Origin: Mycobacterium shinjukuense
GTDB lineage: Bacteria; Actinomycetota; Actinomycetes; Mycobacteriales; Mycobacteriaceae
DNA: 32,000 nucleotides
Reading direction: 5' to 3'
Assembly: GCF_010730055.1 (NCBI RefSeq)
Contig: NZ_AP022575.1
Location: 1,395,640-1,427,639 of the forward strand
Part shown: positions 1,864 to 27,432 of the stretch, one piece after another
How the letters are laid out: every line of letters begins with the position of its first letter
Position numbering within the stretch: the stretch's first letter is position 1
The notes under the pieces: model-generated
Told to the model about the DNA's origin: nothing
The model's input: the letters and a program-made list of their open reading frames with translations, nothing else
The model's database searches: none
Made by a program: the position numbers and the translations under genes

Positions 1864-4165
1864 TGCGCGCCCGGACACCGACGTCCTGCTGACCGTTGTG
1901 TCCGCCGCGGCCGGGCGGATGCGGGTGCACGCCACCGGGTTTCGGTTCGACGCGGTCCGAGCCGTCGCCATCGAGGACACGATTGGCCGGCTGCCCGGCG
2001 TGCGGGCCGTGCAGGCGTATCCGCGAACGGCGTCGGTGGTGATCTGGTATTCGCGGGGGCGCTGCGACACCGCCGCGATGCTGGCGGCGATCGCCGATGC
2101 CGCCCAGCTTCCCGCGGTGACGGTGCCCGCGCGGGCCCCGCACTCGGCCGATATCCGCCGGGTCGGTGTCGTGCGGAAGGTTATCGACTGGACCGCGCGC
2201 ACGCGGTCGGGTCGGCGCCGCGACGTGTCGGGCCGCGACGCCTGCGGGTGCGATCACGATGACAACGAGGACCGTGCACCCGAGGGGCTCTGGCACGTCT
2301 GGAAGCTGCGACGAGCCGCGGTGTCCGGGGCGCTGTGGACCGCCGGGGCGATTGCCGCCTGGGCCGGTCCGCTCGGGCCGGTCGCGCTGGGACTCAAGGC
2401 ACTGGCCTTGGCGGTCGGGGCCTCGACGTTCGTGCCGGCCAGCCTCCAGCGAGCGGCCGAGGGCCGCATCGGCGTGGGCACCTTGATGACCATCGCCGCG
2501 GCCGGCGCCGTCGCACTGGGTCAGGTCGGTGAGGCGGCCACCTTGGCATTCCTGTTCTCGATCAGCGAGGGCTTGGAGGAATACGCGGTGGCGCGCACCC
2601 GGCGCGGCCTGCGGGCCCTGCTGTCACTGGTGCCGGATCGGGCCACGGTGCTGCGGGGGGGCGCCGAAACCACCGTCGCCACGGCCGATCTGCGCGTCGG
2701 CGAGCAGATGATCGTCAAGCCCGGGGAACGCCTCGCCACCGACGGCATCATTCGTGCCGGGCACACCGCGCTGGACGTCTCGGCGATCACCGGCGAATCG
2801 GTGCCGGTGGAGGCCGGGCCCGGTGACGAAGTGTTCGCCGGGTCGATCAACGGCGCCGGCGTGCTGCAGGTGGAGGTCACCGCGACCGCCGAGGAGAACT
2901 CGCTGGCGCGGATCGTGCACATCGTGGAAGCCGAACAGGCCCGCAAGGGCGCTGGTCAGCGGCTGGCCGATCGCATCGCGCGACCATTGGTGCCCGGCAT
3001 CATGATCGCCGCCACGCTGATCGCCGCGACTGGCAGCGTGTTGGGTAACCCGCTGGTCTGGATCGAACGCGCTCTGGTGGTGCTGGTCGCGGCCTCCCCG
3101 TGCGCGCTGGCCATCGCGGTGCCGGTGTCGGTCGTGGCGGCCATCGGCGCCGCCGCCAAACTCGGCGTACTCATCAAGGGCGGCGCCGCGCTGGAAGGCC
3201 TGGGCACCGTGGGCGACATCGCGCTGGACAAAACCGGAACGTTGACCGCCAACCGGCCCGCCGTCATCGACGTCGCGACCGCCAACGGCGTCACCCGCGA
3301 GCAGGTGCTGGCGGTGGCCGCCGCGTTGGAGGCCCAAAGCGAACACCCGCTGGCCGCCGCCATTCTCGCCGCAACCCCGGCACCGACCGCCGCCGCCAGC
3401 GACGTGCAGGCCATCCCCGGGGCCGGACTGACCGGGCATCTCGATGGGCATGCCGTCCGCCTGGGGCGGCCCGGCTGGCTCGACCCGGCCGACCTGGCCG
3501 AGCGGGTGGCGCGCATGCAACACGCTGGGGCCACAGCGGTCCTCGTCGAACGCGACCATCAGCTGCTGGGCGCCATCGCCGTGCGCGACGAACTGCGTCC
3601 CGAAGCCAGCGAAGTCATCACCGGGCTACGCGCCGCCGGCTACCGGGTGACGATGCTCACCGGCGACAACCACGCCACCGCCGCCGCCCTGGCGGCCCAA
3701 GCCGGAATCGAGCACGTCCATGCCGAGTTGCGCCCCGAGGACAAGGCCCAGCTGGTCGGCCGGCTGCGCGCCCAACGACCCACCGCGATGGTCGGCGACG
3801 GCGTCAACGACGCTCCGGCCCTGGCCGCCGCCGACCTGGGCATCGCGATGGGCGCAATGGGAACCGACGTCGCCATCGAAACCGCCGACGTTGCCCTGAT
3901 GGGCCAAGACCTGCGTCACCTGCCGCAAGCGTTGGACCATGCCCGCCGCTGCCGGCGGATCATGCTGCAAAACGTCGGGCTATCGCTGACCATCATCACC
4001 GTGCTGATGCCGCTGGCGTTGTTCGGAACCCTCGGCCTGGCCGCGGTCGTGCTGGTGCACGAACTCACCGAGGTGATCGTGATCGCCAACGGCGTGCGCG
4101 CCGGACGCATCACGCCGCTGGTGCCGACCCCGTGCCGTAGCCAACGAAGCGACACATCACGGTGA
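1850..4165 (+). CDS. ctpG: P1B-type heavy-metal-translocating ATPase CtpG
   Basis: From ATG 1850 (MLTADARPDTDVLLTVVSAAAGRMRVHATGF...) the product is colinear with Mtb CtpG as recalled. DKTGTLT phosphorylation motif at 3227-3247. Also GDGVNDAP and TGES. The TM6 motif SPC is at 3095-3103. A Cys/His/Asp-rich linker reads DACGCDHDDNED. The longer ORF start at 1778 was rejected by alignment to the Mtb N-terminus. Confidence 0.92.
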   Translation: MLTADARPDTDVLLTVVSAAAGRMRVHATGFRFDAVRAVAIEDTIGRLPGVRAVQAYPRTASVVIWYSRGRCDTAAMLAAIADAAQLPAVTVPARAPHSADIRRVGVVRKVIDWTARTRSGRRRDVSGRDACGCDHDDNEDRAPEGLWHVWKLRRAAVSGALWTAGAIAAWAGPLGPVALGLKALALAVGASTFVPASLQRAAEGRIGVGTLMTIAAAGAVALGQVGEAATLAFLFSISEGLEEYAVARTRRGLRALLSLVPDRATVLRGGAETTVATADLRVGEQMIVKPGERLATDGIIRAGHTALDVSAITGESVPVEAGPGDEVFAGSINGAGVLQVEVTATAEENSLARIVHIVEAEQARKGAGQRLADRIARPLVPGIMIAATLIAATGSVLGNPLVWIERALVVLVAASPCALAIAVPVSVVAAIGAAAKLGVLIKGGAALEGLGTVGDIALDKTGTLTANRPAVIDVATANGVTREQVLAVAAALEAQSEHPLAAAILAATPAPTAAASDVQAIPGAGLTGHLDGHAVRLGRPGWLDPADLAERVARMQHAGATAVLVERDHQLLGAIAVRDELRPEASEVITGLRAAGYRVTMLTGDNHATAAALAAQAGIEHVHAELRPEDKAQLVGRLRAQRPTAMVGDGVNDAPALAAADLGIAMGAMGTDVAIETADVALMGQDLRHLPQALDHARRCRRIMLQNVGLSLTIITVLMPLALFGTLGLAAVVLVHELTEVIVIANGVRAGRITPLVPTPCRSQRSDTSR

Positions 4166-4384
4166 CATTGGATCCGGGTGTTGTCGGCGCGCGCGGTGCG
4201 ACGCGGTTTGAGTGGCGAGCCCACCCGGCGGCGCCGAACCGTGTTCCACCGGCCGGTTTTCCGGTGTGCGATGGGGTCGATCCGCTGCGCGGGGAAGTTT
4301 TTCGGGCGTCGGCACAAAACGTCACAGTGACGAAATGCGGGCTGGCCGATTCTCTCCGTTGGTGCTACCTATTGGCACCAGGAC

Positions 4385-4416
4385 ATGCGAATATGCATGA
4401 TAATATGCGAATATGC
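4385..4416 (+). promoter_or_regulatory. vapB operator/promoter candidate: ATGCGAATATGC x2 (20-bp phasing), AATATGC x3
   Basis: ATGCGAATATGC at 4385-4396 and 4405-4416. AATATGC at 4390, 4402 and 4410. The last copy contains the vapB ATG (4413). TAATAT at 4401-4406 is a -10-like hexamer 7 nt upstream of the ATG, which suggests a leaderless transcript. Confidence 0.5.
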
Positions 4417-4658
4417 CTAAGACGGTTCAGATTCGCGACATCGACGACGAGGTGTATGCCGGCCTGCTGCGTCGCGCCGGCGAGGAGGGGATCACGGTGC
4501 CGGAATTGCTGCGCCGTGAGGCGGCCCGATTGGCGGCCCGGCCGTCGGTGGCGCAGTGGCTGGCGCGCACCGGGCGGCGGCCCTCAGCGGTGTCCACGGC
4601 CGAGGTGCTGGCGACCTTGGACGAGTGGCGTGGCGAGTGGCCGGATGCTCGTCGTTGA
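4413..4658 (+). CDS. vapB: VapB-type antitoxin (RHH/FitA-like)
   Basis: MPKTVQIRDIDDEVYAGLLRRAGEEGITVPELLRRE... is a typical ribbon-helix-helix antitoxin N-terminus. There is a 14-nt overlap with the downstream PIN gene. Confidence 0.8.
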   Translation: MPKTVQIRDIDDEVYAGLLRRAGEEGITVPELLRREAARLAARPSVAQWLARTGRRPSAVSTAEVLATLDEWRGEWPDARR

Positions 4659-5043
4659 TGCCTCGTGCCTGTTCGAGGTCGTAGCGGACACCCCCCGGGC
4701 GGGTGCGATCGCGACCCGGTTGGCCGCCGATACCGATCAGGCGGCGCCACATGTGGTTGACGTCGAGGTGATGGGGGTGATCCGCGCCCAGTACCTCAAG
4801 GGGCACCTGGACGGCACAGCCGCAAGTCAGGCGGTCGCCGATTTGCGGGATTGGCCGGGCGAGCGTATCGGGCATCGGTGGCTGCTGGAGCGGGCCTGGG
4901 AGCTGCGAGACTCGGTGCGGGGATGGGATGCGTTCTACGTGGCGCTGGCGGAGGTATTCGATGCAACGCTGCTGACGATGGACGAACGACTGGCCCGCGC
5001 GCACGGGCCCACCTGCCGGATCGAAGTCCTAGGCATCGCGTGA
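4645..5043 (+). CDS. vapC: PIN-domain toxin VapC
   Basis: MLVVDASCLFEVV... (Asp5), later ..WDAFYVALAE.. and ..LLTMDERL.. supply the acidic PIN residues. ATG 4645 lies inside the longer track ORF 4162..5043, and the upstream part of that ORF is intergenic. Confidence 0.85.
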   Translation: MLVVDASCLFEVVADTPRAGAIATRLAADTDQAAPHVVDVEVMGVIRAQYLKGHLDGTAASQAVADLRDWPGERIGHRWLLERAWELRDSVRGWDAFYVALAEVFDATLLTMDERLARAHGPTCRIEVLGIA

Positions 5044-5092
5044 TCGTCGCTGACCAAACGGGTGCCCCAACGCAACGTCACCATGACGAACC

Positions 5093-5300
5093 TCTGAGGA
5101 GGTGCGGCGTTCGGTCGCGTCCCAACGTCTGCACTGCTGCATCGCCCGCGACTTGGTCTTCGAGCACGCCGGTGACTACGACACCCGGTGGTCGGCGATC
5201 AAGGCGATCGCGGGCTAGTTGGGGATGAGCCCGGCAGTGCTGGTCTAGGCGTGGTCTAGGCGGCGCCAACGACAACAGCGGCGCCGGACGCCGAAGTCCG
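5093..5300 (+). pseudogene. IS3-family transposase OrfA fragment (HTH region) with in-frame stops
   Basis: Frame translation: SEEVRRSVASQRLHCCIARDLVFEHAGDYDTRWSAIKAIAG*LGMSPAVLV*AWSRRRQRQQRRRTPKS. It resembles the IS3/IS6110-type OrfA pattern (..ELRERAVRMV...G....EWAAI..VA..LG...ETLRKWVRQAQ.D.G.RPG). In-frame TAG at 5216-5218 and 5246-5248. Confidence 0.5.
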
Positions 5301-5359: not shown

Positions 5360-5593
5360 GTGCGGACTACCATCGATAAGGCCGGTCGTTTGGTGATCCC
5401 AAAGTCACTACGCGAACAGTCGGGCATCATCTCGGGTGAGGTGGAGGTATCGCTGGATGGGGCTGCTATCCGGATCGAAAGCGTGGTAGCCGACAACCTT
5501 GTCGAAGAGGACGGGTTACTCCTCCTTCCCAGTGGCGGGCCAGCGCTTGATGCCGACGCGGTTAGGGAGTTACGGCTTGCCGACCAGCGCTGA
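5360..5593 (+). CDS. vapB: AbrB/SpoVT-fold antitoxin (VapB/MazE-like)
   Basis: From GTG 5360: VRTTIDKAGRLVIPKSLREQSGIISGEVEVSLDGAAIRIE... is a classic AbrB/SpoVT swapped-hairpin N-terminus. The AT-rich upstream region has three ATGGT repeats and TATTTT 6 nt before the GTG. Confidence 0.8.
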   Translation: MRTTIDKAGRLVIPKSLREQSGIISGEVEVSLDGAAIRIESVVADNLVEEDGLLLLPSGGPALDADAVRELRLADQR

Positions 5594-6011
5594 ACATGCC
5601 CTAGTCGACACCAGCGCGGCCCTTGCGCTGGTGCAGCGCGAGAACCCATTTCACCTTGCCGCTCGAGCAAGGCTGCTCGCATGCCGACGTGGGCTGTCGG
5701 GGCATGCCGCGGTGGAGCTGTTGTCGGTACTGACGCGACTGCGGCCGCCGCAGCGCCTGAGTCCGGTTGCGGCACTGCGCCTTGAGGAGACCAATTTTCC
5801 GGAGTCTCGCTTCCTGTCCGCCGCGGATACGAAGGGTCTATTGCGGGAGTTCGCGGAAGCGGGCTTGGCCGGCGGCGCGCTGTACGACGGTCTCGTGGGT
5901 GCGGCTGCTCGTAAGCACAAGCTGCCCCTCGTCACGTGCGACCGACGGGCCGAACCGACATATCGACTGCTCGGTGCCGACTACGAACTGCTATCGCCGA
6001 TTTCGCGCTAA
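5550..6011 (+). CDS. vapC: PIN-domain toxin VapC
   Basis: ..AEHALVDTSAALALVQ... and C-terminal ..LPLVTCDRRA.. indicate a PIN fold. The start is uncertain: ATG 5550, or TTG 5577 preceded by GGGAG (5565-5569). Either start overlaps the antitoxin 3' end. Confidence 0.8.
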   Translation: MPTRLGSYGLPTSAEHALVDTSAALALVQRENPFHLAARARLLACRRGLSGHAAVELLSVLTRLRPPQRLSPVAALRLEETNFPESRFLSAADTKGLLREFAEAGLAGGALYDGLVGAAARKHKLPLVTCDRRAEPTYRLLGADYELLSPISR

Positions 6012-7992: not shown

Positions 7993-8417
7993 GTGCAGAA
8001 ATATTGCCCGTTGAGCAGACAATTCTGGGGTGGCGAGTAGGAACCGGTCAGCACGCCCCTGAAGCCGCCCGTGGCTGAACCACCGGGTGCAATGATGCGA
8101 TTCCAATTCGCGGGGGTGAGAACATAGTGCGTGCCAGAATGCGCAAGGGTGCTGTTCCACGTGTGCGAGACGGATTCGCCTACCGGCAAGTCGAATTCAA
8201 GCTTCCAGTCGGTTAGCGGCACCGTGCTCAAGTTTGTGATGGTGAAGTGGGCGATGAAACCGGTCTGCCACGTCGATGTCACCGACAACGTCGCCGTGGC
8301 CGCAGCCGCATGAGCTACGGGGGTGATGGCGAGTCCGAGGATGGCAGCTAGCAATGCCGACACGGTTGCGTGAAGCGCTGTCCGCCAGCGCTTCACGCAA
8401 TTGTTCAGTCCGGCCAT
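7989..8417 (-). CDS. Secreted carbohydrate-binding module family 2 (CBM2) protein, Rv1987-like
   Basis: From ATG 8417: MAGLNNCVKRWRTALHATVSALLAAILGLAITPVAHA is a signal peptide. It is followed by ATLSVTSTWQTGFIAHFTITN...W.LEFDL...V.HTWNS...NGQYFC, which is the CBM2 pattern (W.GF...V.V.N, conserved Trp, terminal Cys). Confidence 0.75.
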   Translation of the reverse strand: MAGLNNCVKRWRTALHATVSALLAAILGLAITPVAHAAAATATLSVTSTWQTGFIAHFTITNLSTVPLTDWKLEFDLPVGESVSHTWNSTLAHSGTHYVLTPANWNRIIAPGGSATGGFRGVLTGSYSPPQNCLLNGQYFCT

Positions 8418-12922: not shown

Positions 12923-13124
12923 GCGGTGGGGATTGGCGAGGACACGTTGCGGCCGGATTCGGGGGATCGGGCCACCATCGGGAAAAGCGCCGATGGTCCC
13001 CTGCGGGCCGCCTGTGACTTACCTGCGGACATTGGCCCAAACGCATGCACGTCGAGTAATCTAGCGGTTGCGGCTGGTTTGCTGGCGTCATTGAGTGTCG
13101 TCGGCATCGAATGGCGGTTCGACA

Positions 13125-13290
13125 GATTCGTCATGAGAGGGAACCCGGTGTGAATCCGGGACTGTCCCGCAGCGGTATGCAGGAACGACCGCCGTCATCG
13201 GCACTGGTCCACGGCCCTGGGACCGGGAAGCGACGGCCAGTAGGAGCGCCGTTTCGGTGTGTGCCTGTGAGTCCGAAGACCTGCCAGCTG
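13125..13290 (+). promoter_or_regulatory. Cobalamin (B12) riboswitch aptamer
   Basis: Conserved blocks in the correct order: GGGAACCCGGTGTGAATCCGGGACTGTCCCGCAGCGGTA, GCACTGG, GGGACCGGGAAG, and the B12 box GAGTCCGAAGACCTGCC (13269-13285). It sits in the 609-bp divergent intergenic region upstream of the PPE2-like gene. Mtb carries a B12 riboswitch in front of PPE2. Confidence 0.85.
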
Positions 13291-13451
13291 CGCCGGGCGC
13301 GGTGTGTCCGGCGCCCGTCGCCTCGCGGATTGGGCGGATGGCCATGAGCTAGCAGCAGGGCGGCGCCGCTGTGGGGGCGCCGCTGATCGGCTCTAGCGGC
13401 TGAACGTCTCCCAGGGCGACCGGGCATTGCCCGTCGTATCGGAGGACGTTG

Positions 13452-13535
13452 ATGGCACCTCATCGAGCCCTCACCGGGAGCTTCCCGGGCATGCGCCGCG
13501 TCAGCCGGTATCTGTTCGCCGGCAGTGATCGATGA
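13452..13535 (+). CDS. 27-codon upstream ORF in the riboswitch expression platform ([27 protein letters not shown])
   Basis: GGAGGA (13441-13446) lies 5 nt before ATG 13452. The stop TGA at 13533-13535 overlaps the PPE ATG at 13532-13534 (ATGA). The PPE start has no Shine-Dalgarno sequence of its own. Confidence 0.55.
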
Positions 13536-15256
13536 CCGCCCCGATCTGGTTGGCATCGCCACCGGAGGTGCATTCGGCGCTGCTGATCAGCGGCCCGGGA
13601 GCCGGTCCGTTGCTGGCGTCTGCGGGCCAGTGGAACTCGCTCAGCGTTGCCTACGCCGAGGCGGCCGACGAGTTGTCCGCCCTGTTGAGCGGCGTGCAAC
13701 TCGGAGCCTGGGAAGGTCCGACCTCGGTGACCTACGTGGCTGCCCACGCGCCGTATCTGGCGTGGCTGATGCAGGCCAGCGCCGATTGCGCCGCGATAGC
13801 CAGTCGACTGGAAACCGCGGCCGCCGCCTACACCGCCGCCCTGGCCGCAATGCCGACCTTGGCTGAGCTGGCCGCCAATCACGCCGCGCACGCGGTGTTG
13901 GTGGCAACCAATTTCTTTGGCGTCAACACGATCCCGATTGCGCTCAACGAGGCCGACTACGTGCGGATGTGGATCCAGGCCGCCACCGTGATGACCACCT
14001 ATCAGGCGGTCTCGACCGCGGCGGTGGCCTCCACACCGCAGGCCATCCCGGCCCCCCAGATCATGAAAGCCGACGCGCAGGCAGCCGCGACCGCAGAGTC
14101 GTTGGCGCTACCGCCCGACCGACAAAACCAGTTCCTGCAATGGTTGCAGGATATCGGGTATATCGACTTCTACAACAACGTCATTCAACCATTAATAAAT
14201 TGGCTGGCGAACATCCCTTTCCTGCAAGCGCTGTTTTCCGGATTTGATCCTTACCTGCTCATTCTCGGTAATCCACTTACCTATCTCAGCCCGCTCAACA
14301 TCGCGTTCGCCCTGGGCTACCCGATGGATATCGGTACCTATGTCGCCTTGCTGTCAGAAACCTTCGCCTTTATCGGGGCAGATCTGGCAGCGGCATTCGC
14401 TTCGGGTAATCCCGCGACCATCGGTCTGACCATTCTGTTCACCACCATCGAAGCCATTGGCACGATCATCACCGATACCATCGCGTTGCTAAAGACCCTG
14501 CTGGAGCAGACTGCGGCGCTGCTCACGGTTGTCGTGCCCCTGCTGACCAGCCCGTTGGCGCCGTTGGCCGCCGGCGCTGTGCTGGCGCCGATCGGCGCCA
14601 AGGGCTTGGCGGCGCTGGTGGCCGTGCCGCCACCGGCGCCAGCCGTCACGGCTCCCGTCACGCCGCCGCTCGCGGCCCTGGCCCCGAGCATCCCGACCTC
14701 TCCCCCGTCGCCGGCACCGACACCCGTGGAGGCGACCGCGCCGGCCCCGGCTCCCGGGCCGCCGGCGCCACCGACCAGCGCACCGCCGTCGGTGACCGGC
14801 GCCGGTGTGGGTGTGGGGATGGAGAGCTACGGCTACCTGGTGAGTGGCCTGAACGCGGATGCCAGGAGGTCCGCAAGCGCCCGCGCCCGAAAGAAGGCGC
14901 CGGAACCCGAAAGCACCGAAATCCCGGCCGTCGCGCCGACGCCGCAGCAGCAGGCTCGACCGCGGCGGCGTAGGCGGGAGAAGGTCGGGCAACTGGACCG
15001 CGGCTACGAGTACATGGATTTGGACTCAGAGGACGCGCCCGACTCGAAGGCGGGCTGGGAGCGGGTCACCGCTGCGGCCGCGTCCGACCAGCGCGGGGGA
15101 AGGCTAGGGTTTGCCGGCATCGCCGGCAAGGCCGGTGCCGCACCGGCAGCCGGGTTGATCACGCTGGCCGGCGATGCGTCCGATGACGGCCGGCGCGTGC
15201 CGCTGACGCCGAGCACCTGGGAGGCCGACCCGGCGCCGCCGGCCGACGACAGCTGA
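13532..15256 (+). CDS. PPE2: PPE family protein, PPE2 (Rv0256c) orthologue-like
   Basis: [28 protein letters not shown]... Long blocks are near-identical to Mtb PPE2 as recalled ([33 protein letters not shown].., [37 protein letters not shown]). A Pro-rich region is present. Basic cluster RPRRRRREK at 14957-14983, followed by [10 protein letters not shown]. Confidence 0.9.
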
Positions 15257-15279: not shown

Positions 15280-16719
15280 TCAATAGGTCAGCCCCGAGTA
15301 CATGATCCGGCCCGGATCATACTTCTGCCGGATGGCGGTCAGTCGAGCTAGGTTGGCGCCGAAGTACCGCGCGGCCGGCTGGTTTGCCTCGAGATAGTTC
15401 ACATAGCCGCCAACCGAATACGGTTGCACCGCGTGATGCGCCGTGTCGAGCCAGCTGGTCGCGGCCGCCGGCGAACCGGCGGTTTCGACGTACCACTGCA
15501 CCAGCGCGGAATGCTTCCGATACGGAAAGGCTGTGGCCCCCGGTGCCACGCTGGCGAGGGCGCCGTCGAGCGCATGCATGATCGCAAACATCCGACCGGC
15601 CGGGCGCGGAAACGCATCGACCGCCGAGGCGATCCCCTGGGCGACGGCCGGGGTGATCGTGGTGAAGACATCGGATCCGCCGACATAGCCGAGCGGCGAC
15701 GGGTTGAGGTTCCCGACGGCCAGGTACCTCACCAAGCCCAGGTAATCGAAGGTGTGATTCTCGGTCCCGGTCGGCTGCATGCCGACCGCTGCGATGATGG
15801 CGCCGGCCACGCTGCCAGCCGACCCGGCCGGGCAGGTCGCCATGATGCGACAGTGCGTGCCCAGCGCGTCGGTGGTGGCCTCCGCCAACGCCCAGTTGCT
15901 TCGGTCGGCGGTACGCAGCCAGTTCTGCCAACCGAGCAGGATCTGCGCGAACGACTGCGGCGGGAAATTGAGGTTGACCACGTCCACCTCAGCGGTGGGA
16001 AACGTGGTGAAGGTTAGCGACGTTGTCACCCCGAAGTTGCCACCGCCGCCGCCGCGCAGCGCCCAAAAAAGGTCGGGGTGGTTGGTGGTCGATGCGGTGA
16101 CCGCCTCGCCGCCGGGCAGCACCACCGACGCCGATGTCAGTGCGTCACACATCAGGCCCGCGTGCCGGGATTGGGCGCCCAGCCCGCCGCCCAGGGCGTG
16201 TCCCGCGGTACCGACCGTCGGGCAGGTGCCCGTGGAGATGCCCCGGCCGGCCGCGGCCAGCGCCTGGTGCAGCGCATACAAACCGGTCGCCGGCGTCACC
16301 GTGACCTGTCCGCTGGCGCTGTCATAGTTGATCTCCTCGGGTAACTGGCGCAGGTCGAGCACCATGGTTCCGTCCGCGGTGGACGCGCCCACATAGGAGT
16401 GTCCGCCGCTGCGGGCAGCGACCTTGAGGTTGTGGGCAGCAGCGAATGCCATCGCCTTTTGCACGTCGGCCGCCGAGGTCGGGCCGACGATCGCCGCCGG
16501 CGTCGAGCCGTTGTAGTTGGTGTTGAAAACCTGTTTGGCCGTTGCGAATTGGGCGCCGTCGTCCGGCCGTAACACTCGCCCGCCGATGGCCGCGGAAAGA
16601 CCGTCCCAGTCGGGGGTGTTCGGATCGGCGGTAGCCCGGACCGGACCGAATACCGCGCCGGCGGCCAACGCGCCGGCGGCAGCGCGCAGGAACGTCTGGC
16701 GTGAGATCTCATGCGCCAA
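15280..16719 (-). CDS. FAD-linked oxidase (FAD_binding_4 / berberine-bridge-enzyme-like) with Tat-type signal peptide
   Basis: 479 aa. TTG start at 16719 preceded by GGGAG. N-terminus ISRQTFLRAAAGALAAGAVFGPVRATA. RSGGHSY flavinylation-type motif, ALRGGGGGNFGV, and a C-terminal BBE-like tail ..YVNYLE....YFGANLARL..IRQKYDP. Confidence 0.85.
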   Translation of the reverse strand: MAHEISRQTFLRAAAGALAAGAVFGPVRATADPNTPDWDGLSAAIGGRVLRPDDGAQFATAKQVFNTNYNGSTPAAIVGPTSAADVQKAMAFAAAHNLKVAARSGGHSYVGASTADGTMVLDLRQLPEEINYDSASGQVTVTPATGLYALHQALAAAGRGISTGTCPTVGTAGHALGGGLGAQSRHAGLMCDALTSASVVLPGGEAVTASTTNHPDLFWALRGGGGGNFGVTTSLTFTTFPTAEVDVVNLNFPPQSFAQILLGWQNWLRTADRSNWALAEATTDALGTHCRIMATCPAGSAGSVAGAIIAAVGMQPTGTENHTFDYLGLVRYLAVGNLNPSPLGYVGGSDVFTTITPAVAQGIASAVDAFPRPAGRMFAIMHALDGALASVAPGATAFPYRKHSALVQWYVETAGSPAAATSWLDTAHHAVQPYSVGGYVNYLEANQPAARYFGANLARLTAIRQKYDPGRIMYSGLTY

Positions 16720-17019: not shown

Positions 17020-17433
17020 TTATGGCCACCAGATCGGGCGAATTTCCAACCGCGGGATCCCTGCAAAGTCGTGTGGGTTGCACGTGTAGAGCGCGACGCC
17101 GTGAGCGATCGCGCTCGCAGCGATCAATGCGTCGTAAGCGCGTGCTGCCGGTTTTCTCCCCGATGACCGCAGCGCCGCGGCGACCCCACCGAATGCTCGC
17201 GCGCAGTCGGCGTCGAAAGGAAGAACCTCAAAGTCTGCCTCGGCCTGCTGCAGATGCTGCTGGCGTGCGCTGCGTTCCTCGTCGCCGCGGGCGACGTGCG
17301 GGCCGACGGATAACTCGGCCAGGGTGATCGCACTGATCACCGATTCGTCGGGAAGGGCTGACGGGTCAGCGATCTGGCCGAGAAGGATCACCGTGGAGGT
17401 GTCCAGCATTCCGCGCGTTGGCAGCCCACTCAC
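17020..17433 (-). CDS. vapC: PIN-domain toxin VapC
   Basis: ..GMLDTSTVILLG... ..ISAITLAELSVG.. ..AIAHGVALYTCNPHDF.. The start is GTG 17433, immediately after the antitoxin stop, or ATG 17409. Confidence 0.85.
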   Translation of the reverse strand: MSGLPTRGMLDTSTVILLGQIADPSALPDESVISAITLAELSVGPHVARGDEERSARQQHLQQAEADFEVLPFDADCARAFGGVAAALRSSGRKPAARAYDALIAASAIAHGVALYTCNPHDFAGIPRLEIRPIWWP

Positions 17434-17666
17434 AGCGACGGATCGATCAGGTTGTCGATATCGCGGCGCAACGCGTCGGGATTCACCCTCGGGAGATGCC
17501 TACGGCGACGAATGAGCTCGGCTGGGCTGACGCTTGGATGCGGCAGTGGGCGCAGTTCGGCCACCGGTGTGCCGTCGCGGGTGACGACGATGCGCTCGCC
17601 GCGCTCGACGCGGCGGAGGACCTCTCCCCCGCTGTTGCGCAACTCGCGCACCGTCACCGAACCCAT
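17430..17666 (-). CDS. Phd/YefM-type antitoxin
   Basis: From ATG 17666: MGSVTVRELRNSGGEVLRRVERGERIVVTRDGTPVAELRPL... is a Phd/YefM N-terminal fold pattern. It is coupled to the downstream PIN gene. Confidence 0.8.
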   Translation of the reverse strand: MGSVTVRELRNSGGEVLRRVERGERIVVTRDGTPVAELRPLPHPSVSPAELIRRRRHLPRVNPDALRRDIDNLIDPSL

Positions 17667-17680
17667 GACCGTAAGTGTAT

Positions 17681-17722
17681 CACCGGTGAGACAAGTCACG
17701 CGTGCCGGTGTTCGGCCACGTG
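17681..17722. promoter_or_regulatory. Series of CAC..GTG palindromes upstream of the antitoxin (CACCGGTG, CACGCGTG, CACGTG)
   Basis: Palindromes at 17681-17688, 17697-17704 and 17717-17722, lying 15-56 nt upstream of the minus-strand antitoxin start. Confidence 0.3.
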
Positions 17723-17789
17723 ATCCGGGCAGGGCAGCTGGGCGGCGTCATATGCCCGCGGTCGAGCGTGTTGTGGTCGACGCCTGTGT

Positions 17790-18185
17790 TCAGATGGCGA
17801 TGACACGAACGAGCTCGGCTAAACCCGAGAACTCGCCGGCGTTTCGGGTGTAGAGGTCCAAGCGGTTGGCGTGTGCCGTCGCGGCGATGAGGAGATCGGC
17901 GAACCGGCTCCGCGGCCTCCTGCCTTCCCCGATGATCGCGGCGACGACCAGGCCGTAGCTTCTGGCCGCGGTTGTGTCGAACGGGATGGGCTCGAGCATC
18001 GATTCCACTTCCTGTAATCGAGCTTGGCGCTTCGCCGCTTCCAGCGGGGTTGCAGCGAGATGAGGACCGGCGGCCAATTCGGCGGCGGTGATCGCAGATA
18101 TCGCCATCTGATCGGGCAGGGCCGCGACCACGGCCGGATCATGCCAGTCGACGACCACAGAGGTGTCAAGAAGTCCGGCCGTCAT
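17790..18185 (-). CDS. vapC: PIN-domain toxin VapC (paralogue of 17020-17433)
   Basis: MTAGLLDTSVVVDW... ..ISAITAAELAAG.. ..ATAHANRLDLYTRNAGEF.. is colinear with the neighbouring VapC. Confidence 0.85.
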   Translation of the reverse strand: MTAGLLDTSVVVDWHDPAVVAALPDQMAISAITAAELAAGPHLAATPLEAAKRQARLQEVESMLEPIPFDTTAARSYGLVVAAIIGEGRRPRSRFADLLIAATAHANRLDLYTRNAGEFSGLAELVRVIAI

Positions 18186-18549: not shown

Positions 18550-20217
18550 TCAATCAAAGATGGTCGTCCCGACGCCGGCGGGGCTGTAGTCGATGTACAC
18601 CCGCCGCGCCGCGAAGGGCAGATACCCGGTGTTCATCAGGCCCGAGGAGATGACCGTTGGGCGGTAATCGTTGGTGTTGAACGAGTACAGCAGATCACCG
18701 CCACTGGTGTAGACCGAAATGTCGGTGTTCGCCGGCAGGGCTCCGGACCCGATCACATACGACGGGATGGTTCCGGTCACGCCGCCGGAATCGATGATCG
18801 AGGGCACGGGGATGGGAGCACCGCCATTGACCGACACGTACAGCGTGGCAATCGGCGCTCCGACAATCTCGACGTCGGGGGCAGGTAGCGGGTTGGGGCC
18901 GAACCGCAGCTCACGGTCGGGGAAGTTGATGAGCACGCCCTCACCGAGGTCGCCCGGCAACGCCATGGTCGGAATGCTGGGCCCCGGGCCCACCGCGTTG
19001 GGCCCGATCCCCAAAACCCCGTCCACACCGGCGGGATCGAAATAGGCCTCGAACGGGGTCGTCGTCGGATTGGCGAAAAACGCCCTGACATATGCCGAAA
19101 CGGCGTACTGCGATGTCGGCAACGAGAACAGCACGACGTTCACACTGGTGGGCCCGGTGGCGATGCCGTTGCCGAAATCCACCGTGGTGGTGTAGGAGGC
19201 GAAGACATAGACCAGGCCCCCGCTGTAGCCGCTGACACTGAGCTCGGTGGGCAGGCCCATGCGCAATATTCCCGGTAGTCCCCCGACGTCTTTGGGTAAG
19301 ACGACAAGACCGGCGGATCCGGTATCAACCAGCACCGGCGTGCTCGGTCCGCCGTTGACCGAGGTGTAGACCACCGGATGAGCGCCGTTGATGATCGGCA
19401 TCGCAACGGTTCTGCCGTCCCCACCCGGGCCACTGACCCCGTGCGGACCCCACAACCAGCCCCCGTGACCTCCAGTGCCGCCAGGGCCACGATTCAACGG
19501 GTTCAACACGTCGTCGAGGCCTCCGGCACCACCCCTGCCGCCCGCACCCAACAGGCCCGCGACACCACCGGGTCCGCCGACCGCACCGGGCATACCGGCG
19601 ACGGTCGACACGCCCCCTTCCCCGCCGGGCCCGGCGTGGCCGAACAGCCAGCCACCGTTACCGCCGGCCCCGCCGGCGGCGTTGGGCCCACCGGCACCCC
19701 CCGCGCCCCCATTGCCGATCAACCCCGCCGCGCCGCCGGCCCCCCCGCCGACCCCCGACACCATTGACGAATAGCCGTTGCCGCCGTTGCCATACAACAG
19801 CCCGCCGGCCCCGCCGTTCGGCCTGGCGGCCGTCCCGGGTGCGCCGTCGCCGATCAGCGGACGCCCTAACAACGCCTGGGTGGGTGTGTTCACCGCGCCC
19901 AGCAGATCGTGCTGCGCCGTCTGCAACTGCGGCGCGATCGCGGCCTCGGTGGCCACATACCATTCGGCCCCGGAATTCAACGCCAGCACGAACTGTTGAT
20001 GAAACGCGCTGGCCTGGGCGCTGAGCGCCTGATACTCCTTGCCGAACCCGGCAAACAGCGCGGCCACCGCCGCCGACACCTCATCGGCGGCGGCCGCCGC
20101 GAGCCCGGTGGTGGGCGCGGCGGCCGCCGCGTTGGCCGCGGTCAGCGCCGAATCGATGTTCGCCAAGGCCGTCGCCGCCGACATCAACGACTCGGGAGCC
20201 ACGACTAGAAGTGACAC
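18550..20217 (-). CDS. PE_PGRS protein with C-terminal aspartic-protease (PecA / PE_PGRS35-type) domain
   Basis: The PE domain MSLLVVAPESLMSAATALANI... has YxxxE (WYVATE). A Gly-Gly-Ala/Asn repeat block is encoded at about 19450-19800. The C-terminal domain carries two catalytic-type motifs, LVDTGSAG (DTGS at 19315-19326) and IIDSGGV (DSGG at 18781-18792). Confidence 0.9.
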   Translation of the reverse strand: MSLLVVAPESLMSAATALANIDSALTAANAAAAAPTTGLAAAAADEVSAAVAALFAGFGKEYQALSAQASAFHQQFVLALNSGAEWYVATEAAIAPQLQTAQHDLLGAVNTPTQALLGRPLIGDGAPGTAARPNGGAGGLLYGNGGNGYSSMVSGVGGGAGGAAGLIGNGGAGGAGGPNAAGGAGGNGGWLFGHAGPGGEGGVSTVAGMPGAVGGPGGVAGLLGAGGRGGAGGLDDVLNPLNRGPGGTGGHGGWLWGPHGVSGPGGDGRTVAMPIINGAHPVVYTSVNGGPSTPVLVDTGSAGLVVLPKDVGGLPGILRMGLPTELSVSGYSGGLVYVFASYTTTVDFGNGIATGPTSVNVVLFSLPTSQYAVSAYVRAFFANPTTTPFEAYFDPAGVDGVLGIGPNAVGPGPSIPTMALPGDLGEGVLINFPDRELRFGPNPLPAPDVEIVGAPIATLYVSVNGGAPIPVPSIIDSGGVTGTIPSYVIGSGALPANTDISVYTSGGDLLYSFNTNDYRPTVISSGLMNTGYLPFAARRVYIDYSPAGVGTTIFD

Positions 20218-26295: not shown

Positions 26296-27432
26296 GTGGA
26301 TTACGGAGTACTGCCACCCGAGATCAACTCCGCGCGCATGTATGCGGGTCCGGGGTCGGGCTCCTTGCTGGCCGCTGCGGCGGCCTGGACCGGGCTGGCC
26401 GCCGATCTGCACGCCGCCGCGGCGGGTTATCGATCGGTGATCTCCGGACTGACCAGCGGTCCGTGGCTGGGACCGGCGTCAGCGGCGCTGGTTTCCGCCG
26501 CGGCACCGTATGTGGCCTGGCTGGACAGCAGCGCGGAGCAGGCCGAGTTGGCTGCCAGCCAGGCGGCGGCCGCCGCCGCCGCACACGAGGCCGCGTTCGC
26601 GTTGACGGTGCCCCCACCGGTGATCGCGGCAAACCGCGCCCTGCTGGCGTCGTTGATCGCGACGAACATCTTGGGACAAAACACCGCGGCCATTGCGACC
26701 ACCGAAGCGGAGTACGTCGAGATGTGGGCTCAGGACGCGGCGGCGATGTACGGCTATGCGAGCGCGTCGGCGGCGGCGGCGACGTTGACCGATTTCGAGG
26801 AGCCGGCGGAGGTGACCAACCCGGCCGGGCTGGCTGGCCAGGCCGCCGCCGTCGCCGTCGCCGAGGCTAGTTGCGCCCCAACCGGGGCACCGGAGTTGCC
26901 GGCGGGCGTGCACTCGGCGGTTACCGGCGCGCTCAAGACGCTGGCCGCGCCCTTCTCCAGCAGCCCGATCGACGACCTCATCGCGCTGTACACCAAGTAC
27001 TGCGCGCCGTTCATGCCGGCAGCGACGTCAACGGCGCAGAGCACCAACGCGATCGTGGCCCTGGCGGCGTTCATGAAGGGCCTGGCTCCGGCGGCCGCCT
27101 CCGCGGTCAAGGCCGCCGAAGGCGCGGCCCAGGCGCTGGGTGCGGCCACCTCCGGGATTGCCGGCAAGGGTGCGGGTGTGGCGGCGAGCCTGGGGCGCGC
27201 GCTTCCGCTGGGGGCACTGTCGGTGCCGCCCAGCTGGGCTCCGGTGACCGCCGTGACCAACCCGGCATTGGCGGCGCTGACCAGCGCCGCGGCGGCACCG
27301 GCCGCCGCGGACGGAATCCACCCCGTGCCGATGACCCCGTTTGGGCCGATGTTCGGAAGCCTTGGCGGGCGAAATCTCCCGACCTACGGGTTCAAGCCCG
27401 CGGTGATGGCCCGACCGCCCGCCGCCGGATAA
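26296..27432 (+). CDS. PPE family protein, PPE-SVP subclass
   Basis: (GTG) MDYGVLPPEINSARMYAGPGSGSLL..., WxG (PWLGP), GALSVPPSWA (SVP motif), and a ..RPPAAG C-terminus similar to the PPE18 group. It starts 25 nt after the PE gene, as in a typical PE/PPE operon. Confidence 0.9.
   Translation: MDYGVLPPEINSARMYAGPGSGSLLAAAAAWTGLAADLHAAAAGYRSVISGLTSGPWLGPASAALVSAAAPYVAWLDSSAEQAELAASQAAAAAAAHEAAFALTVPPPVIAANRALLASLIATNILGQNTAAIATTEAEYVEMWAQDAAAMYGYASASAAAATLTDFEEPAEVTNPAGLAGQAAAVAVAEASCAPTGAPELPAGVHSAVTGALKTLAAPFSSSPIDDLIALYTKYCAPFMPAATSTAQSTNAIVALAAFMKGLAPAAASAVKAAEGAAQALGAATSGIAGKGAGVAASLGRALPLGALSVPPSWAPVTAVTNPALAALTSAAAAPAAADGIHPVPMTPFGPMFGSLGGRNLPTYGFKPAVMARPPAAG

Follow-up and report, generated by a model that had tools for sequence, protein, structure and literature searches.

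The metE gene of Mycobacterium tuberculosis (Rv1133c) carries a class I cobalamin riboswitch that was reportedly described by Warner in 2007. The expression platform of the metE switch, which occludes the Shine-Dalgarno (SD) sequence, has been demonstrated experimentally, and the kissing loop between a CCC in loop L5 and a GG in loop L13 has been validated by compensatory mutation (Kipkorir et al., NAR 2024, PMC11260477). The same work describes a second arrangement at M. tuberculosis ppe2, in which the riboswitch masks the SD of an upstream open reading frame (uORF) named uPPE2, PPE2 itself is without an obvious SD and an AUGA is common to both frames; PPE2 expression needs translation of the uORF and the tight overlap, and proceeds mainly via termination-reinitiation (PMC11260477). 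Here we analyze a stretch of 32,000 nt from Mycobacterium shinjukuense (contig NZ_AP022575.1, positions 1,395,640 to 1,427,639; herein referred to as the window and numbered from its first letter), in which a cobalamin riboswitch and a 27-codon uORF precede a PPE2-family gene.

An earlier reading of these letters (herein referred to as the original prediction) had proposed a riboswitch-gated, SD-bearing uORF from which ribosomes terminate and re-initiate on PPE2, a relay that is well supported by homology and had already been demonstrated for M. tuberculosis ppe2 (PMC11260477). We hypothesize, with a probability of roughly 0.7, that the leader is a chimera, in which a copy of a metE leader is joined to the end of a uPPE2-type uORF, and that it drives a B12-repressed relay from the uORF to PPE2. 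Since the relay mechanism, the separation of PPE2 from cob genes and the idea of cobalt or B12 uptake are already in print, the novelty would lie in the putatively chimeric, metE-derived leader and in the importer neighbourhoods described below; no report of a metE-to-PPE2 riboswitch swap was found in the searchable literature.

Identity of the Leader

The cobalamin riboswitch model RF00174 matches the window at 13085-13302 (+) over its full length (model positions 1-189) with 81.3 bits (E = 9e-19; gathering threshold 31.5 bits), the sole Rfam match in the 32 kb window, so that the aptamer that the original prediction had placed upstream of the PPE gene is confirmed, together with its B12 box, GAGTCCGAAGACCTGCC. 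The leader that surrounds this aptamer resembles those of metE. By blastn, window positions 13073-13346 are 78-83% identical to four metE leaders (E = 1e-58 to 1e-68), with 78% identity to that of the M. tuberculosis complex (L092) and 80-83% to metagenomic ones, whereas the M. tuberculosis ppe2 leader matches the window leader in a 31-nt core alone. From 13530 on, the window matches ppe2 genes (73-80% identity in PPE coding sequence). The length of the aptamer also falls within the metE range, at 218 nt compared with 214-236 nt for metE-linked and ~180 nt for compact ppe2 aptamers (~181 nt in M. tuberculosis).

The correspondence with metE extends to individual bases. With the transcription start of M. 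tuberculosis metE taken at L092:2136, the published metE coordinates (L5 CCC at 92-94, B12 box at G199-C215, L13 loop at C255-U262 and L13 GG at 258-259) fit the window exactly (table 1), and the L5 CCC and L13 GG, bases that were mutated in metE, are kept, as is the B12 box. Homology to metE leaders begins at 13073 and the M. tuberculosis alignment would put the +1 position near 13071; a sigma-70 consensus scan for a leader promoter gave no match.

An invariant block of 25 nt (GTCGCCTCGYGGAYTGGGCGGATGG) is the same in all six PPE-linked leaders of the long type defined below and in six of six metagenomic metE leaders, and M. tuberculosis metE has a near-identical variant of it. Used as a metagenome query, the block retrieved six loci, each of which presents a riboswitch, the block and an SD and then directly metE, beginning MTPLPFSATILGAPRIGPNRELKRA. 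Because the metE coordinates fit exactly, we identify the block as the anti-anti-TIR hairpin (TIR, translation initiation region), which presents the kissing-loop partner of L5 in the 8-nt loop CGCGGAUU. The L5 CCC and the L13 GG are invariant across leaders, and hence there is no covariation evidence for the kissing loop. Taken at the level of sequence, the window leader appears to be a metE-type (class I) switch that has been fused, with its expression platform, to a PPE2 gene.

Two metE-type riboswitch leaders (L086 and L090) also occur on one 75.7 kb metagenome contig, Ga0335071_10000178, one before an apparently intact metE 5' end and the other before a metE frame with a stop after 77 codons, so that natural examples of duplicated metE leaders are at hand.

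The uORF and Its Junction with PPE2

GGAGG occurs once in 13071-13545, at 13441, in agreement with the original prediction that the only strong ribosome-binding site of the leader (GGAGGA) serves the ATG at 13452. The 27-codon frame opened there is out of phase with PPE2 and, again as predicted, its TGA overlaps the PPE start codon as ATGA (13532-13535). The motif G[AG]AGG[AG]C is conserved before the uORF or metE start in 13 of 13 leaders. Whether relatives conserve the uORF, its SD and the overlap had been left to comparison by the original prediction, and all six long leaders do keep the SD, the ATG, a uORF of 26-27 codons and the exact ATGA. The comparisons thus show a genuine aptamer, a leader homologous to those of metE, and conservation of the functional bases, the uORF and the ATGA.

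The ATG of the uORF aligns with the metE start codon. Over the first 60 nt, without gaps, the uORF is 47-58% identical to metE coding sequence in M. marinum, M. basiliense, M. simiae and two metagenome-assembled genomes (MAGs; L009 and L016), compared with ~33% for codon shuffles (z = 5-7.7), and every frame-slid control was lower. A vestige (APxIGxxR) of the MetE motif GAPRIGPNR can be read in the uORF peptides, as AAPHIGEHR in M. marinum and GAGGIEACR in M. simiae. At the other end, the peptide of the window closes with AGSDR before the stop, and the tails of the long leaders (AGGxR before the stop), together with the bases before the ATGA, resemble the tails of compact-type uPPE2. These comparisons suggest that the 5' two-thirds of the uORF derive from the first ~20 codons of metE. 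With a metE-like 5' part and a uPPE2-like tail, the junction is placed at about codon 20 of the uORF, roughly 13505-13530.

At the uORF start, all six PPE-linked long leaders read TGATG (13450-13454 in the window, with the same position in L084, L085, L028, L009 and L016), where a TGA overlaps the uORF ATG; TGATG is not present in metE-linked leaders.

Expression Platform and Proposed Mechanism

The anti-SD hairpin described in the original prediction is contained in the minimum-free-energy fold of 13296-13545: the anti-TIR strand ACGUCUCCC pairs with GGAGGACGU, which holds the SD, at eight of nine positions (one G-U), around an inner CGGGC/GCCCG stem. Across the 13 leaders, 65.8% of cells in the anti-TIR/TIR helix are paired, compared with 34-50% when the partner is slid. 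RNAalifold, run on the same 13 leaders, predicts that the 5' strand of the L13 hairpin can instead pair with 13415-13425 in a ligand-free helix. There is no terminator-like hairpin with a U-run in 13300-13530, and transcriptional attenuation was rejected as the main mechanism on that account.

We propose that, when adenosylcobalamin is bound, the L5-L13 kissing loop would lock the anti-anti-TIR hairpin, leaving the anti-TIR strand to occlude the SD and the uORF untranslated. Without ligand, the 5' strand of this hairpin would pair with 13415-13425, the SD would be exposed and the uORF would be translated; its ribosomes would stop at the UGA (13533-13535) and re-initiate on the AUG (13532-13534). 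PPE2 would be B12-repressed and the uORF would serve as a landing pad for ribosomes. We infer the ligand response, the occlusion of the SD in vivo and the re-initiation by analogy with the M. tuberculosis systems.

As to origin, the 5' part of the leader (~13071-13510) would be the metE leader copy, comprising the P0 hairpin, the class I aptamer, the L13 hairpin, the anti-TIR and TIR, the SD, the start codon and ~20 metE codons, and the 3' part would consist of the last few codons of a uPPE2-type uORF and the ATGA junction to PPE2. In a single event, a metE leader with ~20 codons may have taken the place of the ancestral compact switch, joined in frame to the end of uPPE2 and with the ATGA kept. 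The legend of Supplementary Figure 4 of PMC11260477 lists the M. marinum metE riboswitch separately, and the event was therefore probably a duplication rather than a transfer. A swap that kept the ATGA coupling would argue for selection on the uORF relay itself. A prediction also follows, namely that the PPE2 of M. marinum and M. shinjukuense should respond to B12 with metE-like sensitivity (tens of micromolar, selective for adenosylcobalamin), in contrast to the weak and promiscuous B12 response of M. tuberculosis ppe2.

Table 1. Features of the PPE2 locus in the M. shinjukuense window
Feature	Position	Strand	Basis
Candidate -10 element TAATCT	13058-13063	+	Predicted
Probable leader 5' end, equivalent of the M. 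tuberculosis metE P0 hairpin and transcription start	13071-13084	+	Alignment with metE leaders
Cobalamin riboswitch aptamer, metE type (class I, long P6 extension)	13085-13302	+	RF00174; metE homology
L5 CCC	13166-13168	+	Corresponds to CCC 92-94 of M. tuberculosis metE, mutated in PMC11260477
B12 box GAGTCCGAAGACCTGCC	13269-13285	+	Identical to G199-C215 of the M. tuberculosis metE leader
Anti-anti-TIR hairpin with L13 (kissing partner of L5)	13317-13340	+	Conserved block; metE homology
L13 loop CGCGGAUU, 8 nt	13324-13331	+	Corresponds to M. tuberculosis metE C255-U262
L13 GG	13327-13328	+	Corresponds to M. tuberculosis metE GG 258-259
Anti-TIR (anti-SD) strand ACGUCUCCC	13404-13412	+	Pairs with 13441-13449 in the minimum-free-energy fold
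uORF SD / translation initiation region GGAGGACGU	13441-13449	+	Sole GGAGG of the leader; conserved in 13 leaders
uORF, 27 codons	13452-13535	+	ATG 13452, TGA 13533-13535
GUGAUC, possible tether or weak SD for re-initiation	13525-13530	+	Complementarity to the 16S rRNA 3' tail
PPE2-family gene, 574 aa	13532-15256	+	PF00823, PF18878
FAD oxidase open reading frame, convergent	15280-16719	-	FAD_binding_4 and BBE domains

Two Leader Types across Mycobacteria

Eighty loci related to the PPE gene were fetched (L001-L080), and riboswitches were sought in them by profile search and Rfam. A cobalamin riboswitch lies upstream of PPE in ~37 of the 80, and also in M. tuberculosis, M. lacus, M. marinum, M. 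basiliense, M. kansasii, M. kubicae and M. intracellulare. A single-sequence nhmmer search with the window aptamer matched only three of the 80 loci, so that a profile was needed, and this shortfall gave the first hint of two leader types. The compact type, with an aptamer of ~180 nt that lies 36-139 nt from the PPE start, is found in M. tuberculosis, M. leprae, M. lacus, M. simulans, M. kansasii, M. kubicae, M. intracellulare and many others. The long type, with an aptamer of 209-222 nt and a distance of 222-230 nt (230 nt in the window), is found in the window, M. marinum (L084), M. basiliense (L085), M. simiae (L028) and the MAGs L009 and L016.

The long leader type has a single origin. In neighbour-joining trees, the six long leaders are monophyletic (70-90% identical mutually, 62-73% to metE-linked leaders) and the PPE proteins of their loci form one clade nested among the compact-type PPE2 proteins. 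Most compact-type loci have a uORF that ends in NTGA. The compact riboswitch of M. simulans (L003, 5786-6001) ends 36 nt before the PPE2 ATGA, without a uORF, and L019, L022, L023 and L034 are likewise without one; the uORF relay is therefore common, not universal.

Some individual loci have further features. Within 6 kb, L019 (Mycolicibacter icosiumassiliensis) holds a SAM-IV riboswitch as well as two for cobalamin (riboswitch coordinates 3232-3351 (-), 5830-5968 (+) and 8291-8407 (+)), and the cobalamin riboswitch that precedes its PPE gene is weak (41 bits). M. kubicae (L094, 1-5692) has metE, a DUF3556 gene in convergent orientation and a riboswitch-ppe2 unit of the compact type as neighbours; the metE-DUF3556 pair recurs in L096 (2501-6065), and in L016 (9027-10850) the long-type PPE2 has DUF3556 on its downstream side. 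This neighbourhood of metE, DUF3556 and ppe2 may preserve a trace of the site at which the leaders were swapped.

Alternative Explanations

Several observations weigh against the reading of a chimeric leader that drives a B12-repressed relay. The evidence for M. shinjukuense is comparative, the experiments being from M. tuberculosis; the duplication is inferred from M. marinum, and the metE locus of M. shinjukuense was not retrieved. Both trees are neighbour-joining trees without support values, and the recombination breakpoint is only bracketed by the interval given above. In the window itself, the identity of the uORF to metE is eroded to 40%, or 46% with a +3 shift (z = 2), and the case for a metE remnant is carried by the relatives and by the continuous alignment, not by the uORF of the window. 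The uORF frame is no more open than an alternative frame (Wilcoxon p = 0.99), 27 open codons being ordinary at this G+C content, and the open-frame statistic was dropped as evidence for the uORF. Fold energies are no better than those of shuffles (z about -0.8), and fold-energy z-scores, none of them significant for the leader, the platform or the junction, were not used as support. Covariation in the anti-TIR/TIR helix is weak, with two compensatory changes, and pairing as high as that observed arises in 13 of 500 shuffles. Additionally, complementarity of the GUGAUC or GGCGG type to ribosomal RNA (rRNA) at the PPE start makes some independent initiation possible.

The alternative that survives best is that the riboswitch gates the uORF as proposed and that PPE2 depends on the uORF in some way other than re-initiation, by protection from Rho or decay, or by the melting of a hairpin for fresh 30S initiation. 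Just upstream of the PPE start, GUGAUC (13525-13530) is a 6-nt perfect complement to the GAUCAC stretch of the 16S rRNA 3' tail, and relatives carry GGCGGUGAUC where the window has GUGAUC. The claim of the original prediction that the PPE ATG has no SD of its own holds for a canonical GGAGG, of which there is none, and has to be qualified for these elements complementary to the rRNA tail. When the long leaders are folded locally, the PPE AUG and GUGAUC in four of the six pair with a metE-derived CAUCGG segment (uORF codons 16-19), a pairing that, in such models, would block independent PPE initiation until a ribosome translating the uORF opens it. Involvement of Rho has also been reported for the M. 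tuberculosis metE leader (PMC11260477). The z-scores of the local folds are not significant, however, and the exact ATGA is kept in six of six long leaders; we regard a dependence other than re-initiation as rather unlikely.

Considerably more remote is the possibility that PPE2 is translated without any dependence on the uORF and lies outside B12 regulation, the metE-derived leader being a decaying relic. A relic would fit the lack of conservation of the uORF peptide, the near-complete loss of metE similarity from the window uORF and an open frame expected by chance; however, the aptamer scores 81 bits and every tested functional base is intact, the kissing-loop hairpin block is invariant in six long leaders that are otherwise 70-90% identical, and none of the six has lost the SD, the ATG or the frame, features that a relic would not retain. 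The identity assumed in the original prediction, a compact switch of the M. tuberculosis ppe2 type (here an orthologue that lost cobQ1-cobU), has a common gene family, uORF, ATGA and RF00174 match in its favour and is nevertheless barely credible, being refuted by the metE-leader alignments (78-83% metE identity over 270 nt, compared with a 31-nt core in the ppe2 leader), by the length of the aptamer (218 versus ~181 nt) and its distance to PPE (230 versus 36-139 nt), and by a genomic site beside a PALP gene, as in M. marinum and M. basiliense.

The PPE2 Protein and Its Genomic Setting

The PPE protein matches PF00823 (2e-61) and PF18878 (PPE-PPW; 3e-13), and its PPE domain at the N terminus is followed by a hydrophobic central region (residues ~295-366), a linker rich in Pro and, at the C terminus, the PPW motif. 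It is 55-75% identical over its full length to riboswitch-linked PPE2 proteins, including those of M. lacus, M. leprae and M. simulans, and 76% identical to M. tuberculosis PPE2 over residues 1-326, and it is nested inside the PPE2 family in a neighbour-joining tree. An AlphaFold2 model built on a 40-sequence alignment has a mean predicted local distance difference test score of 50 and is confident for residues 1-170 only, the PPE domain. Within the gene, G+C content falls to 49-56% at 14100-14500, the conserved central domain, compared with 65-81% in the flanks, which include the Pro-rich linker (14500-14800). A look-up of a PPE protein in M. spongiae returned no entry.

The protein is 100% identical to an M. 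shinjukuense protein named 'PPE2' on contig JACKTO010000025.1. Identical copies are present on three contigs, one of them 4.5 Mb long, and the neighbours at one fetched locus match those of the window; an assembly artefact is therefore unlikely, and with it the prospect, raised in the original prediction, that a corrected assembly would place cob genes immediately downstream. The neighbours of PPE2 in the window are a PALP gene and the FAD oxidase gene, the latter convergent and with its stop at 15280, as originally described. The PALP neighbour is common only to the M. marinum and M. basiliense loci, and the genomic site is unlike that of M. tuberculosis ppe2; the FAD oxidase, PALP and cyclase proteins of the window gave no tblastn match in loci L001-L080. 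Other genes of the window, with listed coordinates 17020-18185 (-), 18550-20217 (-) and 26296-27432 (+), include two PIN/PhdYeFM toxin-antitoxin pairs and a PE-PGRS protein whose C-terminal domain is aspartyl-peptidase-like; no riboswitch accompanies the second PPE gene, which belongs to the SVP subfamily.

Tblastn with M. tuberculosis CobQ1 and CobU found no match in the window, as expected from the original prediction, which had no cob gene following PPE. Its suggestion that this absence sets the locus apart does not stand, since the absence is the usual state in the genus and the variability has been published: the operon link of cobQ/cobU with PPE2 varies among mycobacteria (PMC4428469; PMC12713380), and a 2025 review places ppe2 apart from cobQ-cobU in M. 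marinum and M. avium (PMC12713380). Among the PPE2 loci examined, intact cobQ-cobU follows PPE2 in M. tuberculosis only, decayed copies follow it in M. leprae, M. lepromatosis and M. uberis, and in M. kansasii (L093, 4001-6401) a compact riboswitch-PPE2 unit is followed by cobU alone, without cobQ, an intermediate between the M. tuberculosis and the stand-alone arrangements; elsewhere the downstream gene is unrelated and often convergent. In the MAG L016, the long-type riboswitch-PPE2 unit (riboswitch at 5557-5778 (+)) is divergent from an intact cobQ (3739-5208 (-); 83% identical to M. tuberculosis CobQ1), close to it and not in one operon. Probes of M. tuberculosis CobQ1 and the MetE N terminus found no entry named M. 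shinjukuense among the best 120 matches, from which absence is not concluded.

Importer Neighbourhoods and a Possible Role in Uptake

In Mycobacterium sp. MFM001 (L030, 1486-7638) and M. celatum (L053, 1416-7587), a B12 riboswitch is followed by genes for Peripla_BP_2 (a BtuF-like binding protein), FecCD, an ABC (ATP-binding cassette) ATPase, a FhuF-like protein, DUF7676 and PPE. The best NCBIfam match of the FecCD gene is BtuC and the ATPase is near 'corrinoid ABC transporter ATPase', with NCBIfam scores under the equivalog cut-offs. The PPE of L030 is a full PPE2-family member, and that of L053 matches the window protein over the N-terminal PPE domain only. Shorter versions of this order are riboswitch, FhuF, DUF7676 and PPE in L026 (4489-6001), and riboswitch, FhuF-like (2Fe-2S protein) and PPE2 in L018, L020 (4175-6784) and L021. 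In all six of these loci the PPE start overlaps the preceding gene as NTGA, which is ATGA in L030 and L053. In L005, L008, L027 and the M. leprae group, genes of the importer set lie divergently beside the riboswitch-PPE2 unit. The leprosy-bacillus group has a decayed BtuF-like, FecCD, ABC and FhuF set divergently upstream of a riboswitch-PPE2-(cobQ-cobU pseudogene) unit, with remnants in M. leprae (L006, 4426-5466), M. uberis (L029, 2093-5529) and M. lepromatosis (L004). None of the importer genes of the L030/L053 set was found within the 32 kb window.

As an association, these gene neighbourhoods support a possible role of PPE2 in corrinoid uptake. The original prediction had argued that PPE2 itself, rather than the cob genes, is the B12-responsive function and that it acts in uptake; this gains from a riboswitch that travels with PPE2 and from the BtuFCD-like operons, and as an idea it was already published, PPE2 having been proposed as a cobalt transporter, 'CbtG', by Rodionov 2003, as cited in Young et al. 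(PMC4428469). No mycobacterial outer-membrane cobamide transporter is known according to a 2025 review (PMC12713380), and a transposon screen of M. marinum at high B12 found no specific outer-membrane transporter (PMC11237697); the 1 ug/mL B12 of that screen would have repressed PPE2 anyway.

A broader proposal, which we offer tentatively and consider doubtful, is that PPE2 is the missing mycomembrane conduit for corrinoids or a cobalt chelate, working with a BtuFCD-like importer, and that selection for a B12-repressed relay led one lineage (M. marinum, M. basiliense, M. shinjukuense and M. simiae) to rebuild it by means of the metE riboswitch and ~20 codons. If true, this would be a case of modular riboswitch replacement, from class II-like to class I, in which a new ligand sensitivity was acquired and the downstream translational logic was kept. 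The riboswitch follows PPE2, not the cob genes, across ~40 species, and PPE2 is a testable transporter candidate.

Comparison with Known Systems

Riboswitch-controlled BtuFCD/BtuB corrinoid importers of other bacteria resemble the L030 and L053 operons, where a riboswitch precedes importer genes and PPE; the window, in contrast, has none of these transporter genes, and no PPE protein has been shown to transport corrinoids. In the NUGA stop/start coupling of mycobacteria, as in the window, a four-base ATGA joins an upstream open reading frame to a gene without a strong SD; the upstream frame of the window differs in that it encodes a non-conserved peptide, whose only evident role is the delivery of ribosomes under riboswitch control.

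The class I riboswitch of M. tuberculosis metE is 78% identical to the window over 13073-13346, and P0, the L5 CCC, the B12 box, L13, the anti-TIR and TIR, the SD and the start codon all correspond. The frame that it opens in the window is not metE, but a stub of 27 codons whose stop overlaps the start codon of PPE2.

The M. tuberculosis ppe2 (Rv0256c) relay and the window have in common a cobalamin OFF switch, predicted in the case of the window, that masks the SD of a uORF, an out-of-frame uORF, the AUGA, the lack of a canonical PPE2 SD and a PPE-PPW cargo. Their aptamers and platforms, however, share homology only in the universal core: the M. tuberculosis ppe2 switch is compact (~190 nt) and class II-like, with a dissociation constant of ~446 uM and broad ligand acceptance, whereas the window leader spans ~380 nt and is of the metE class I type. 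The uORFs also differ in origin, that of the compact type beginning MTLQ and that of the window being a probable metE remnant, and ppe2 is followed by cobQ1-cobU in M. tuberculosis and not in the window, which lies at a different genomic site. As far as such comparisons allow, the window leader appears to work like the M. tuberculosis relay but to represent a separate leader lineage.

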